Shown: piece after piece, positions 15,365 through 32,854 of the stretch
Layout: each line of letters begins with the position of its first letter
Position numbering within the stretch: position 1 is the first letter of the stretch
DNA from: a virus
Taxonomy: Duplodnaviria; Heunggongvirae; Uroviricota; Caudoviricetes
Length of the DNA stretch: 35,047 nt
Virus record (IMG/VR): IMGVR_UViG_2534682060_000007
Span: 1-35,047 of that record
Reading direction: 5' to 3' (one strand)
Notes under the pieces: model-generated
The model's database searches: none
What the model was told of the DNA's origin: nothing
The model's input: the letters and a program-made list of their open reading frames with translations, nothing else
Translations under genes and position numbers: made by a program

Positions 15365-15976
15365 ATGGTGAAACGTATTTTGAAAATTTACATCGCGGGG
15401 CCGATGACTGGTTATCCAGATTACAACCGTGCGGCGTTTAATGCGAAAGCGAGCGAGCTGATGGCTGAAGGGCATATCGTTCTGAATCCAGCGGTGTTAC
15501 CTGGTGGCCTTTGCCAGAGTGAATACATGGATATTTGCCTGGCAATGGTGCGTTCTGCTGATGCGATTTATTTGCTCAATCGATGGGAAGAATCGGTTGG
15601 TGCTCGTGCAGAGCACGCGCTGGCTGAAAAGCTGGGGCTGACTGTAATTTATGAGTCACCAACCAACATTGAATGCCAGGTTGCTCCGCATATTTACCGG
15701 GAACTGGTCAATGCACTGCGTGATATCGCTGCTGTATATCACGGCACAGAACAGCTTCGTGAGCGTTTAGCCCATACCATTTCCTATTACCTTTCTTTAT
15801 CTCATGAGCACAAGCTCCGCCAGAAGGTAATGATCAAATTTATCATGAGGTTATCGAAATCCCTGGCAAACGCCGATCCAAAGAATCCATTACCGAAAGA
15901 GGCAATGAATTACCTGAAGTCCTGCAACGTTGTTTCTGAAGATGGCGTTCTTTTGGTTAGAAGGAGTTCTGCGTGA
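15365..15976 (+). CDS. DUF4406-like protein (nucleoside 2-deoxyribosyltransferase-like fold) with C-terminal extension
   Basis: IYIAGPMTGYPDYNRAAF motif typical of DUF4406 / N-deoxyribosyltransferase-like proteins; start at ATG 15365. Confidence 0.6.
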   Translation: MVKRILKIYIAGPMTGYPDYNRAAFNAKASELMAEGHIVLNPAVLPGGLCQSEYMDICLAMVRSADAIYLLNRWEESVGARAEHALAEKLGLTVIYESPTNIECQVAPHIYRELVNALRDIAAVYHGTEQLRERLAHTISYYLSLSHEHKLRQKVMIKFIMRLSKSLANADPKNPLPKEAMNYLKSCNVVSEDGVLLVRRSSA

Positions 15977-28751: not shown

Positions 28752-28755
28752 AAAG

Positions 28756-28786
28756 AAGCCCGCCATACCAAGCGGGCTTTTTGTTA
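28756..28786. terminator. Rho-independent terminator between convergent operons
   Basis: Stem gcccgc/gcgggc with 7-nt loop followed by TTTTTGTTATTT. Confidence 0.55.
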
Positions 28787-29560
28787 TTTCACCTCTTCTG
28801 CCGCTGTATCATTGGACTGTTCTTCTTTGGCCCGTTCTGCAATCGCCGCACGGCATTTCGCCCTGGCTATAGCGATTGCTTCAGCTCGCACATCGTCTGG
28901 AATCGTTGACGTGATATACATATCCAGTTCTTCGGCACGGAATACTGTTTGGTCCAGATATTCGCGTAGCATCCAGGTAAATTCGAAATCACACGCGATA
29001 ATCTCTGCGCTACCTTCTGCACCATTTGGGAAATGAATAAATGCCTGTTTAGCCAAACCGATAACACGACATGCGGTTGCCAAAACAGCGACAACCAGGT
29101 TTACATTTTCACACGCTACGGGCTGATTAACGCCGGAGATTACTCCATTTAACTGTCGGTTATATGGAAGGTAGTTTGAGATGCGTTCTACGCGCCATGT
29201 GCCAGTCAGGCTGCCATTTTTAAAGATAATTGGTGTAACGGATAGCCCAAGCTCGCGTATAAGTCGTTGCGCTATAGCAGGATCATTAAACAGGTCTAAT
29301 GCTACACATTCGAAAGACTGCGCAAGGGTAAACAGTTCTTCCAGAGAGTAGTCTTTGCCCCTGGCGGTGATGTAACGACGAACGCCGCTGTCTGCATCAC
29401 TCCATATAGCTACGCCATGCTCTTCATTCAGCTCTTCATTAAAGCCGAGATACGTCATGATAGTGCGTTCAATCGTGTCAAACGGCAGTGACATGTCGGC
29501 GTTAACAGCCACCAGCAGGCCATTACGCAAGCGGTATTGAATTGTTTTGGTGCTTTCCAT
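28784..29560 (-). CDS. hypothetical protein
   Basis: 258-aa ORF, last gene of the leftward operon. Confidence 0.55.
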   Translation of the reverse strand: MESTKTIQYRLRNGLLVAVNADMSLPFDTIERTIMTYLGFNEELNEEHGVAIWSDADSGVRRYITARGKDYSLEELFTLAQSFECVALDLFNDPAIAQRLIRELGLSVTPIIFKNGSLTGTWRVERISNYLPYNRQLNGVISGVNQPVACENVNLVVAVLATACRVIGLAKQAFIHFPNGAEGSAEIIACDFEFTWMLREYLDQTVFRAEELDMYITSTIPDDVRAEAIAIARAKCRAAIAERAKEEQSNDTAAEEVK

Positions 29561-29566
29561 GTCAAA

Positions 29567-30244
29567 TCACTCCACTACAAACCAGTCACATGCCAGTAAG
29601 TCGCCTACAGAAGGAACCCACGGAACAACTACACCTTGTGCATTTTTTAAGGCGAAATAAGCACCATACGGAACGAGGTCGCCGGGGAAATATCCCTTAA
29701 TGGCTTCCATTCGTGCCGGGTACTGTCCTTCAGGAACCAGCCAGCAGAATTGGTTTTCGCCGTTCCACCCGCGTCGAGCAACTTTCTTGCCATCCTTCAG
29801 CCACATCAGCGCGTCAGAAAAGTCGGCTGCTTCAAGGTCGATTTCTTCTTGCTGGATGGTGATGCCACCAGCAGAAATAGTTACGCTCCCGGTAAGATTA
29901 ATCATCACGCCGTTGTCATCCGTAATGATGACCGTGGTTCCATTTTTGGAGGCGTCGTTAACCAGGCCATAGCGTTCCTCAAATGGTTTCTCCGGGGCAT
30001 AGAACAGATAACCGTTTTCATAAACGATCAGATACCCGCCAGTTTTTGGTCGGTGTTTTTGTAAAAACATTGCGTCAACACAAACTGTTGCCCCTTTTGG
30101 TTCAACGAGTTCGATGCAGCCCCACAGTGGGGCATCAGTTACTCCGAAAATAACAACATTTTTGATTTTCGATGCACTAACGTTTTTGTGAGCTTTGTAT
30201 TTGGGAAGGAACTTAAAAAGCTCTTTCGTTGCCATGTTATTCAT
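29567..30244 (-). CDS. two-domain protein with C-terminal DUF2829 (Tad2-like) domain
   Basis: C-terminal FSDALMWLKDGKKVARRGWNGENQFCWLVPEG...PWVPSVGDLLACDWFVVE matches the DUF2829 hallmark (GKKV.R.GWNG) as recalled. Confidence 0.55.
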   Translation of the reverse strand: MNNMATKELFKFLPKYKAHKNVSASKIKNVVIFGVTDAPLWGCIELVEPKGATVCVDAMFLQKHRPKTGGYLIVYENGYLFYAPEKPFEERYGLVNDASKNGTTVIITDDNGVMINLTGSVTISAGGITIQQEEIDLEAADFSDALMWLKDGKKVARRGWNGENQFCWLVPEGQYPARMEAIKGYFPGDLVPYGAYFALKNAQGVVVPWVPSVGDLLACDWFVVE

Positions 30245-30258
30245 AGTCTTTTCTCTGC

Positions 30259-30753
30259 TTATAACTTTTCGTACTGAAGCGGTGAACGCTTAATTTCAAA
30301 GTGGCCTTCCGATGTGCTACCAAAGCCACCAGCACCACGTTCCGTTTCGTTGAGTTCCTCAACCTCGACTAGTGAGACTTGTTCAACACGCTCAAAAATT
30401 CCTTGCATGACAGCCATTCCAGGCTTGAGACAAACGCCTTCCCCGCCGGGATCAGTAATCAGTTTTGCCATGATTTCACCGCGATAATCGGAGTCGATAA
30501 TTCCTACGCAGTTAGCCAGGCGAGTATGTTTTTTGCAGCCCAATCCGGATCGCGGATAGAGTTTCAGACACCAGCCGGGCGGGATCTCCATAGCCAGTCC
30601 GGTATACACCCACCAGCTTGAGGAAATTGCACCATTGCTATCGACGCATGGTTTTATTTCAACAGCCTCAAAATCCATCGCCGCCGATCCGGAGGTGGCA
30701 TAAGCTGGAAGTTTTGCTGCCGGATGTAGGCGTTTCACTTTTACGTAAATCAT
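30259..30753 (-). CDS. dut: dUTP diphosphatase
   Basis: dUTPase motifs AYATSGSAAMDF, RSGLG, IIDSDYRGEI, RGAGGFGSTS. Confidence 0.85.
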   Translation of the reverse strand: MIYVKVKRLHPAAKLPAYATSGSAAMDFEAVEIKPCVDSNGAISSSWWVYTGLAMEIPPGWCLKLYPRSGLGCKKHTRLANCVGIIDSDYRGEIMAKLITDPGGEGVCLKPGMAVMQGIFERVEQVSLVEVEELNETERGAGGFGSTSEGHFEIKRSPLQYEKL

Positions 30754-31226
30754 TGTTTTTTAGCTCTCTGCGTGAAGGTGTAAACCCGACGTTTGATATG
30801 TGGAACGGTAGGAACAGGAAGACAGGAACTTTCAATAACCCCTTGCCCCTCCAGCGATCGCACCGCCCGCAAGAACTGCGACGTGTCGCCGCCAAACTGG
30901 CGGGCATAGGTGCTGCCGTTATGAAGTATTTGAGCTATTACCCGAGCTTTTGTCTGGCTGTCACGATATGCGAATAGCCGCACGGCCTCTTCTGGCGCAA
31001 TCGCTAACTGATAGCCTTTCCCGGCACGGTGTCGAATGAATCCATGCGCCAGTAGGTTTTTGAGTTCGTTACGAGTGCGAACAGATCCGTAATCCAGGAA
31101 GTGTGGATTGATAACGACTGGCTTAAACCATTCCGTAGGTGCTTTAGCTAATAGAGCTAACAGCTTCCCGGATAATTCTGGATAGGAAGACGGGTAACAA
31201 TTCAGAGATGGGTAATAAGTTTTCAC
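30750..31226 (-). CDS. hypothetical protein
   Basis: 158-aa ORF, ATGA-type overlap with dut. Confidence 0.5.
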   Translation of the reverse strand: MKTYYPSLNCYPSSYPELSGKLLALLAKAPTEWFKPVVINPHFLDYGSVRTRNELKNLLAHGFIRHRAGKGYQLAIAPEEAVRLFAYRDSQTKARVIAQILHNGSTYARQFGGDTSQFLRAVRSLEGQGVIESSCLPVPTVPHIKRRVYTFTQRAKKQ

Positions 31227-31567
31227 CGACGCCCCCTTGCAGGATATCGACCTGCATTAGTATCCGGTGCAATAAAGCCGGTAGTGGGGCGAGTGAAAGC
31301 GAGATTAATCTTCTCGACCATAGTGCGATAATTTTCCTGATAGTGGGCCAGGAGTTTTTCGGCGGCAATGATGGTTACTTTCCGGACGTAGCTTTCTGCT
31401 TCCTCCAGATTTCGCCAGTTTTTTTCGAGGGTAAACACAGGGACGGCCTCAAGCCCGGTCATGATGCCGAACACAACGACAGCATGACTGTTCTTAACAC
31501 CAGCGGCGAAGGTTACGGTGTAACAATCCACCTTGAAGCGTCTTGATTCCGTGATTTGACTCTGCAA
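31223..31567 (-). CDS. hypothetical protein
   Basis: 114-aa ORF, first gene after motif site 5. Confidence 0.5.
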   Translation of the reverse strand: MQSQITESRRFKVDCYTVTFAAGVKNSHAVVVFGIMTGLEAVPVFTLEKNWRNLEEAESYVRKVTIIAAEKLLAHYQENYRTMVEKINLAFTRPTTGFIAPDTNAGRYPARGRR

Positions 31568-31621
31568 AGCACCCTCCTAAATAGGCGAGGGTACTTTACA
31601 GCAAAGGCGTCAATCTAAAAA

Positions 31622-31640
31622 GATGTGTTAGAAATTTAAT
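31622..31640. promoter_or_regulatory. recurring motif site 5 (GATGTGTTAGAAATTTAATT)
   Basis: In the 73-bp gap between the Cre-like gene and the downstream operon. Confidence 0.4.
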
Positions 31641-32669: not shown

Positions 32670-32820
32670 GAAACTATTTCACCTCTATATACAGATGACG
32701 CTACGCGAAAAATATAAAAATGACAGGGTAGCTATAAGTTAATTTTCAAAATACAAGCCTTTGATTCGAGGCACGTATTTTCAGTGATGTCAACACTGTT
32801 CATCTACACATGATTATAGC

Positions 32821-32854
32821 CTAACTTTAAATAATGCCAATTATTTAAAGTTAT
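32821..32854. other. candidate lox-like recombination site (13-bp inverted arms, 8-bp spacer)
   Basis: CTAACTTTAAATA-ATGCCAAT-TATTTAAAGTTAT; arms match 12/13 to each other and 10/13 to the loxP arm ATAACTTCGTATA; about 150 bp upstream of the Cre-like start. Confidence 0.45.

Follow-up and report, generated by a model that had tools for sequence, protein, structure and literature searches.

The gene considered here lies at positions 29567..30244, on the minus strand, of IMG/VR virus record IMGVR_UViG_2534682060_000007 (positions 1 to 35,047; the whole stretch of 35,047 nucleotides is called the window below). The window represents a D6-like phage-plasmid of the P1 family; over the 3 kb around the gene it shares 98% identity with Escherichia phage D6, and it also encodes humD, phd/doc and a cre-like recombinase. 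According to the list of open reading frames (ORFs), the gene has an ATG start and encodes 225 amino acids plus a stop, exactly as the original prediction had placed it. We consider it likely that the product serves a P1-like (D6-type) phage-plasmid as a modular anti-defence protein, in which a Tad2 signal sponge is joined to a second, N-terminal module. Membership of the Tad2 family is already recognisable from public annotation. New are the identity of the N-terminal module, an oligonucleotide/oligosaccharide-binding (OB) fold resembling the phage decoration protein Dec that represents a huge unnamed family, and the fact that its annotated fusion partners are mostly sponges. The parts of the gene are listed below, with confidence given as the predicted local distance difference test (pLDDT) and the predicted template modelling score (pTM) of AlphaFold2 (AF2) models.

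29567..30244, minus strand: coding sequence of the target, consisting of the Dec-like OB domain, a linker and the Tad2 domain (ORF list; full-length match to phrog_872, E=2e-58)
29960..30217, minus strand: N-domain, residues ~10-95, a beta-barrel of the OB-fold type plus three short helices (pLDDT 90.3, pTM 0.81 in an AF2 model of this domain by itself)
29843..29959, minus strand: middle segment, residues 96-134, a beta-prone, low-confidence linker (pLDDT <50; variable or missing in an alignment of 27 family members)
29570..29842, minus strand: Tad2 domain (PF11195, formerly DUF2829), residues 135-225 (Pfam envelope 141-224; pLDDT 80-90)
29759..29767, minus strand: W160-N161-G162, equivalent to the W21/N22/G23 motif of the ADP-ribose (ADPR) pocket of HgmTad2 (alignment to 8KBI)
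29600..29620, minus strand: W209-V-P-S212-V-G-D215, equivalent to W87..S90..D93 of HgmTad2 (alignment; ModTad2 has W-T-P-S-V-S-D)
29666..29734, minus strand: variable Tad2 insertion, residues 171-193 (alignment columns 201-235)
29560..29860, no strand: recombination block of ~300 bp that coincides with the Tad2 module, near-identical to Salmonella phage SJ46 (sliding-window identity)

The C-terminal ~90 amino acids had been proposed to carry the DUF2829 hallmark, and the profile and structure checks called for at the time strongly support this. Residues 141-224 matched PF11195 over profile positions 2-73 of 73 (E=1.9e-22; 80 bits against a 25-bit cut-off), and the hallmark LMWLKDGKKVARRGWNG...W...DW is located at residues 146-221. 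A phmmer search of PDB sequences retrieved solved Tad2 proteins, with ModTad2 (9EIB, 8V3E) as the best match (E=6e-20 to 6e-21) and five further Tad2/AcrIIA7 entries behind it. E-values for other solved relatives were 1e-11 for HgmTad2/AcrIIA7, 1e-9 for SPO1 Tad2 and 3e-9 for SptTad2. Identity to ModTad2 was 45% over 89 columns with a single one-residue gap, compared with about 36% and one gap for SPO1 Tad2 and about 36-37% and 17 gap columns for HgmTad2. The AF2 model of this part (pLDDT 80-90) reproduces the published Tad2 topology, in which an antiparallel sheet comes after an N-terminal helix, with helices at 142-150 and 213-217 and strands at 154-157, 166-170, 173-176, 190-193, 196-200, 206-208 and 221-224. 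The full-length model had a pTM of 0.42, with no fixed packing between the N-domain and the Tad2 domain.

The residues that form the ADPR pocket of HgmTad2 are known from mutagenesis and from contacts with glycocyclic ADPR (gcADPR) (bioRxiv 10.1101/2023.11.15.567273), and both pocket motifs are recognisable in the target. W160, W209, P211, S212 and D215 were invariant in the alignment of 27 family members, and N161 and G162 were kept in most, not all, of them. The insertion at residues 171-193 has the same length as that of ModTad2 and occurs in at least four length or sequence variants among P1-like relatives, on otherwise similar backbones. In HgmTad2 and MoTad2 the corresponding insertion builds a second pocket, for a cyclic dinucleotide or cyclic UMP (cUMP), and the variants are consistent with a putative diversification of that pocket.

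The N-terminal ~130 amino acids had been described as one unknown domain unrelated to Tad2. The lack of relationship to Tad2 stands; the region is neither a single domain nor without a recognisable fold, as it consists of a ~95-aa Dec-like OB-fold followed by a low-confidence segment of ~40 aa. In the full-length AF2 model, pLDDT was about 90 across the N-domain and below 50 for residues 97-137. The middle segment is absent from most members of the N-domain family and from some P1-like relatives. Residues 1-100 matched no Pfam family even at E<=10, and PF11195 was the only Pfam family that the full protein matched at E<=0.1. The N-domain had no match in NCBIfam, and in PHROGs it matched only families of 'unknown function', among them phrog_11049 (E=1e-24). 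A fold search of BFVD likewise returned uncharacterised proteins only.

The family behind this domain is large. A phmmer search of 1.84 billion representative proteins gave 1,816 clusters at E<=1e-3, and a profile search of a 5.8-billion-protein set gave 6,354 clusters at E<=1e-5; the best 120 of these 6,354 were stand-alone members only, with no new architectures. Nearly all members are unnamed stand-alone proteins of ~85-100 aa. They share the signature LP.YKCHK.V.A.KI...KH.P..GGY.V.YEDGY.S.SPAKAFE.GY, in which P14, Y16, H19, K20, V22, A24, K26, I27, K63, H64, P66, G69, G70, Y71, Y75, D77, G78, Y79, S81, S83, P84, F88, E89, G91 and Y92 (target numbering) are 90-100% conserved over 266 sequences. 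Across phages whose hosts are unrelated, conservation of the His, Lys, Tyr, Asp and Ser residues of the signature is 94% or higher, and the signature spans phages of Escherichia, Klebsiella, Ralstonia, Pseudomonas and Burkholderia as well as metagenomes.

By every method used, the top match of the N-domain was the decoration protein Dec of phage L (6E3C). Foldseek gave E=9e-4, a query TM-score (TMq) of 0.58 and 29% identity; the family profile searched against PDB sequences gave E=0.006, and hhalign gave 93% with E=3e-7. BLASTP aligned residues 65-125 with Dec 59-118 (E=1e-6), a weak extension into the stalk-like middle segment. Within it, residues 113-125 show weak similarity to Dec 106-118 (I.LTG.VT.SA), where the Dec stalk starts, in a segment of pLDDT <50. 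Distant homology between the N-domain and the OB-fold of Dec is well supported.

Of 149 representative proteins that contain the N-domain, 70 also have either 50 aa or more of additional sequence or a second, tandem copy; the domain is found at either terminus. A Pfam scan of the 79 longer members gave 19 member-family matches, and 15 of the 19 fall in sponge families: Tad2 (5), PF13876, Acb4 (4), PF21825, Sequestin (3), PF24729, the Acb2/Tad1 hairpin (2), and RyR (1). The remainder were DUF4406, DUF5662, AlpA and DUF551, one each. Matches past the gathering thresholds were found for Acb4 (P0131, P0181, P0209, P0241), Sequestin (P0182, P0201), RyR (P0175) and the Acb2/Tad1 hairpin (P0185, P0251). 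Phages combine the N-domain with Tad2, Acb4, Sequestin, Acb2/Tad1 and RyR sponges in single polypeptides. Three proteins (P0125, P0127 and P0131) hold two tandem Dec-like N-domains, and P0131 is the one that also carries Acb4. From the side of the P1-like Tad2 clade, 70 of 120 listed relatives have the N-domain-Tad2 architecture, and a further 29 carry other unknown N-terminal modules. Five add a C-terminal extension, Sequestin in most; Sequestin (PF21825) forms a third module at the C-terminus of P0080, P0097, P0099, P0101 and P0223, and in P0086 the order is reversed. Stand-alone N-domain copies on long contigs were mostly in accessory regions, beside methyltransferases, a Lar-like gene and small hypothetical genes, and once beside an Acb2/Tad1-hairpin gene.

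Fusions of this kind have a precedent. Acb4 and Sequestin are verified sponges, Sequestin having been found through its fusion to Tad2 and Acb4; fused double sponges of the Acb4-Tad2 and Tad2-Sequestin types are on record, including a functional test, and an RyR-related phage protein was recently reported as a sponge for cyclic ADPR (cADPR). The target resembles Acb4-Tad2 (Pasteurella phage Pm86), Tad2-Sequestin and Acb4-Sequestin (Ab09 gp59) in that Tad2 is linked flexibly to a second small phage domain. It differs in that its partner is neither PF13876 nor PF21825 and has no Pfam model. The fusion logic that led to Sequestin missed the N-domain family because it has no Pfam entry. We infer that the family (phrog_11049) is a second, independent anti-signalling module, acting as a sponge or as a binder of a conserved defence component. 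That it is a new nucleotide-signal sponge is a tentative possibility, and an anti-defence role in the general sense is the more probable claim. Coming from a capsid-binding fold, the domain may instead work by binding, or hiding, a conserved trigger or defence component.

Known identities were also considered. Pfam rules out that the N-domain is Sequestin or Acb4, and there was no support for TadIV-1 (a two-helix dimer), an RyR-type sponge, Bes1/2 (Bes1 is RuvC-like) or Tad3-8 (which bind proteins). Of the sponge families known by mid-2026 (Tad1, Tad2, Acb2, Acb4, Sequestin, Lockin, TadIV-1, RyR-like), none is described as a Dec-like OB-fold. Lockin, a beta-rich hexameric sponge for 3'cADPR and His-ADPR, is a conceivable identity, being like the N-domain a small, mostly-beta phage protein without annotation. 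Their distributions argue against it: Lockin is reported as absent from INPHARED and stems from other host genera, whereas the N-domain matches 32 INPHARED records. The fold searches of the PDB with the N-domain returned no Lockin-like entry.

Two side observations concern further fusions. At least two other N-terminal modules recur in the Tad2 clade, with no Pfam domain and no match to the hidden Markov model of the N-domain. One of ~67 aa (Tad2 at ~68-158) occurs in P0077, P0079, P0082, P0108-P0112, P0115, P0117 and P0119, and one of ~105 aa (Tad2 at ~105-200) in P0081, P0083, P0084, P0087-P0089, P0103, P0104, P0107, P0116 and P0120; both are candidates for further unannotated partner modules. 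The N-domain is also fused to DUF4406, which we take to be nucleoside 2-deoxyribosyltransferase-like, and to a MazG-like pyrophosphatase (P0177, 222 aa; Vibrio phage KF6 A0A384WK77, 394 aa; phrog_37613). These fusions hint at a nucleotide-related role of the N-domain beyond sponges.

The signal-sponge role put forward in the original prediction gains support from homology, as the domain is closest to the verified sponge ModTad2 and keeps the ADPR-pocket motifs. In the mechanism that we propose, the C-terminal 90 residues would form a Tad2 sponge, a tetramer by homology, whose interface pockets would bind and sequester the nucleotide alarm signals made by bacterial Toll/interleukin-1 receptor (TIR) or cyclase sensors. 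With its signal sequestered, the defence effector would never be activated. His-ADPR, the signal of type II Thoeris, would sit in the WNG / W..S..D pocket, and cUMP or cyclic CMP (cCMP), the signals of Pycsar, might be held in the insertion-built pocket. A flexible linker would tether the sponge to the Dec-like OB-fold module. The oligomeric state, the ligands, the defence systems inhibited and any activity of the N-domain are thus predictions.

These assignments draw on published findings for Tad2 proteins. The Tad2 protein of SPO1 acts as a tetramer that sequesters 1''-3' gcADPR. ModTad2 leaves type I Thoeris unblocked but blocks type II by sequestering His-ADPR; MoTad2 is the same protein, and it binds cUMP and cCMP in a second pocket and overcomes Pycsar, that of E. 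coli E831 among others. Because ModTad2/MoTad2 is the closest homologue, His-ADPR is the most likely ligand of the target, with cUMP/cCMP possible. ModTad2/MoTad2 (from a Myroides odoratus prophage; 8V3E is the apo form and 9EIB holds His-ADPR) shares with the target the Pfam family, 45% identity, the length of the beta2-beta3 insertion and the WNG and W.PSV.D motifs, and a tetrameric sponge mode may be expected by analogy. It differs as a stand-alone protein of 89 aa, whereas the target has a 134-aa N-terminal extension. SPO1 Tad2 (gp34.65) and HgmTad2/AcrIIA7 share the fold family and the conserved ADPR pocket. The insertion of HgmTad2 is 17 residues longer than that of the target, and that of SPO1 Tad2 is unrelated in sequence; both proteins bind gcADPR, and HgmTad2 also binds cGG/cGAMP.

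The Tad2 module also shows signs of having moved on its own. When the window is compared with SJ46, a single one of the 273 nt in the Tad2 codons differs (99.6% identity), whereas the N-domain is 74.7% and the middle segment 66.7% identical. The flanks of the block fall to 60-80% identity upstream and 50-65% downstream, with sharp boundaries on both sides. Since synonymous sites are identical too, this reflects recent recombination and not merely purifying selection; the Tad2 module is an exchanged cassette.

Several points weigh against the proposal, and they concern the ligand, the N-module in general and the N-module of this allele. As to the ligand, the position of HgmTad2 T92 is G214 in the target (S in ModTad2), the assignment rests on overall sequence similarity to ModTad2, and 45% identity leaves specificity unfixed in a family with known specificity shifts. 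The Tad2 domain might accordingly sequester the type I Thoeris signal (3'cADPR/gcADPR), N7-cADPR or the cyclic dinucleotides of CBASS rather than His-ADPR or cUMP. Most Tad2 homologues assayed inhibit type I Thoeris, one and the same Tad2 protein can act against types I, II and IV, the gcADPR-pocket motifs of HgmTad2 are conserved in the target, and the insertion variants of the P1-like relatives point to a shifting specificity of the second pocket. We nevertheless regard such a different specificity as unlikely: ModTad2 is the closest characterised homologue by a clear margin (45% vs ~36%), has an insertion of equal length and does not inhibit type I Thoeris, and the insertion of the dinucleotide-binding HgmTad2 is far longer than that of the target (17 gap columns). 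Departing further from a sponge, the protein could be an accessory of nucleotide metabolism acting with the dUTPase, akin to the nucleotide-binding accessory that had also been suggested, or an anti-CRISPR of the AcrIIA7 type. The adjacent dut gene, a dut-Tad2 fusion (P0056), the position of Tad2 beside dUTPase in Bacillus phages JL and Shanette and the AcrIIA7 entries among the PDB matches all speak for it. We find it very improbable, however, as a re-test of AcrIIA7/HgmTad2 gave no inhibition of Cas9 and the protein acts as a sponge (bioRxiv 10.1101/2023.11.15.567273), and all functionally characterised DUF2829 proteins cited sequester immune signals. The accessory role is in addition unsupported because the dut neighbourhood is lineage-specific: the SJ46 homologue follows ssb, and P1 lacks the gene.

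With respect to the N-module in general, most of its fusion partners have no Pfam domain, so that the enrichment for sponges is measured among annotated partners only. The one structural homologue of the module is a protein that decorates capsids, a stand-alone copy in Ralstonia GP4 lies between the portal and major head genes, and two database entries name N-domain relatives 'capsid decoration protein', stray annotations that the homology to Dec explains. The module might then have kept the function of Dec, decorating or targeting capsids and carrying the sponge on or in the particle. This appears quite improbable to us. The capsid contacts of Dec (K30, Y31, Y49, Y71 and E73) align to V31, I32, C55, N77 and Y79 of the target, and the family consensus has D at the fourth of these positions and Y at the fifth and is variable at the first three; the contacts are not conserved in the N-domain family, and the polar and aromatic signature of the family is absent from Dec. 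Phages with unrelated capsids carry that signature almost unchanged, and its constancy across unrelated hosts would fit a common or universal ligand or target better than a phage-specific capsid surface. The C-terminal segment of Dec (~45 aa) forms a trimeric beta-helix spike, whereas most N-domain family members have no stalk. The target has dut on one side and isaA on the other, with cre and phd/doc close by; here, as in most sampled contigs, the gene is outside head-assembly modules. A sponge on the capsid exterior would not reach the cytoplasm, and the recurrent fusion of the family to sponge domains, which sets it apart from Dec, would go unexplained.

The remaining points against the proposal concern this particular allele. 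The N-domain of the target is off-consensus at D77N, S81F, S83A and G91R, each at a position that is at least 96% conserved. In reference D6, orf114 (146 aa; L001:6868-7308) is the same gene with an in-frame deletion of 237 bp, or 79 codons, that removes residues 21-99. The deletion maps to window positions 29945-30190, which are flanked in the window by the direct repeat CAAAAA (…CAC AAAAAC GTT… / …TCC AAAAAT GGA…), and the repeat suggests a putative origin by microhomology or slippage. In the D6 lineage, then, the Tad2 module is retained, and the N-module may have been altered or be in decay. Taken further, the N-module of this allele would be a decaying, inactive passenger, and the protein a plain Tad2 sponge with an inert extension. 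This would also account for the truncated relatives (P0044, P0046, P0058 and P0065 at the N-terminus, and the P0056 dut-Tad2 fusion that lacks the module) and for the fast divergence of the N-terminal half next to a near-identical Tad2 cassette. On the other side, the allele is intact, has a confident predicted fold and is abundant (389 members in its cluster; 60 E. coli records). Most signature residues are kept (among them H19, K20, K26, K63, H64, Y71, Y75, Y79, E89 and Y92), and the substitutions could equally mean an altered specificity. We hold this passenger state to be somewhat doubtful. Because the N-module is atypical at four positions and is deleted in D6, it is probably the Tad2 module that counts here. 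A sponge joined to a second, candidate anti-defence module remains our preferred description of the protein.

The gene is common on P1-like elements. The cluster of 98%-identical proteins that holds it (P0001) has 389 members, and DNA homologues were present in 213 of 5,426 complete E. coli genomes (~4%), at 213 plasmid places, mostly on plasmids of 75-100 kb, and at 7 chromosomal ones. The annotation of these E. coli homologues is 'DUF2829 domain-containing protein' throughout; at >=95% DNA identity, 60 E. coli records match. In RCS47 (FO818745.1, ~15495-15950) only residues 1-152 are found, annotated 'part 1' beside an inverted repeat; its Tad2 domain is interrupted by an insertion after residue 152. 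A tblastn search of classical P1 (NC_005856, 21051-24132; L007) found no copy of the N-domain-Tad2 gene, and the order there is ssb-isaA-IS1-isaB. That P1 once had the gene and lost it to IS1, leaving isaA and isaB as remnants, was ruled out, since no match to the target came from IsaA or IsaB; the counterpart of P1 IsaA in the window is the 258-aa gene downstream of the target (49% identity). The 56-aa N-terminal extension of SJ46 J46_0048 (L002:4048-4893; …AFHEKNTPRYCVRWWENIPDPPEGAIHQVLSRGKTM) is the same as the leader at the N-terminus of P1 IsaA (320 aa; L007:4570-5532). The shared leader reflects either mis-annotated start codons or an N-domain-Tad2 cassette placed in frame behind a leader downstream of ssb. 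In a published assay, the Pycsar-sensitive phage that Tad2 homologues rescued was P1 (Fig. S2 legend, bioRxiv 10.1101/2025.08.24.671296). As P1 lacks the gene and is sensitive, D6-like and SJ46-like elements are predicted to resist defences that stop P1.

Around the target, five genes form a tightly packed minus-strand cluster (orf117, orf116, dut, the target and the isaA homologue) with gaps or overlaps of -4 to +14 bp. The features next to the target are the following.

31223-31567, minus strand: orf117, in the same tightly packed cluster as dut and the target (phrog_1968)
30750-31226, minus strand: orf116, in the same cluster, with a 4-bp overlap with dut (phrog_6669)
30259..30753, minus strand: dut, dUTP diphosphatase (Pfam dUTPase, E=1.7e-14; NCBIfam dut equivalog, E=2e-35)
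28784..29560, minus strand: isaA homologue, 258 aa, 6 bp downstream of the target, 49% identical to the body of P1 IsaA (phrog_2326)
28753..28782, no strand: GC-rich hairpin in the gap where the doc/pdcA and isaA units converge, with T-runs and terminator-like sites on both strands

The end of dut lies 14 bp upstream of the start codon of the target on the same strand, and this spacing points to co-transcription of the two genes. An operon with dUTPase had been claimed, and the close spacing of the two genes is confirmed; a functional link does not follow, given the ssb-linked gene of SJ46 and the missing gene of P1. The hairpin is likely to mark the end of the minus-strand cluster. The sole strong sigma-70-like site in 28.4-33.0 kb was found at 32813-32840 on the minus strand, upstream of the cre-like gene (sigma-70 scan). 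The 73-bp gap before orf117 (31568-31640) has a strong AGGAGG Shine-Dalgarno sequence, a TTG start and weak promoter-like hexamers. A search of the window for sites resembling the C1 operator of P1 gave 0 matches at up to 3 mismatches. Searches of Pfam, NCBIfam and PDB sequences returned nothing for the isaA homologue, orf116 and orf117. Their PHROG families are conserved, and the three could belong to an accessory or anti-defence island between cre and phd/doc.

Two further arrangements of Tad2 with dut were observed. P0056 (241 aa; on E. coli contigs of up to 88.6 kb) is a fusion of dUTPase (14-144) and Tad2 (157-240) without the N-module. Its Tad2 part is 99% identical to that of the window, its NCBI name is 'dUTP diphosphatase', and it apparently arose from a deletion that joined dut to Tad2. 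Tad2 stands next to dut a second time in the unrelated Bacillus phages JL and Shanette (KC595512.2 ~92490-92765; KC595513.2 ~93200-93475), where the Tad2 homologue directly adjoins or overlaps a gene annotated as dUTP pyrophosphatase.

For the P1 family, the proposal predicts that P1-like elements with the gene, unlike laboratory P1, neutralise type II Thoeris and perhaps Pycsar, which bears on the spread of phage-plasmids and on the use of P1 as a tool. The sharply bounded Tad2 cassette indicates that recombination at the level of domains shapes anti-defence genes. For the N-domain family, the proposal, if true, would provide a functional lead for thousands of 'hypothetical proteins' and would mean that the fold of a decoration protein has been re-used for immune evasion, or the reverse. 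Should consensus members prove to be sponges or inhibitors, a major family would be added to the counter-defence repertoire of phages.

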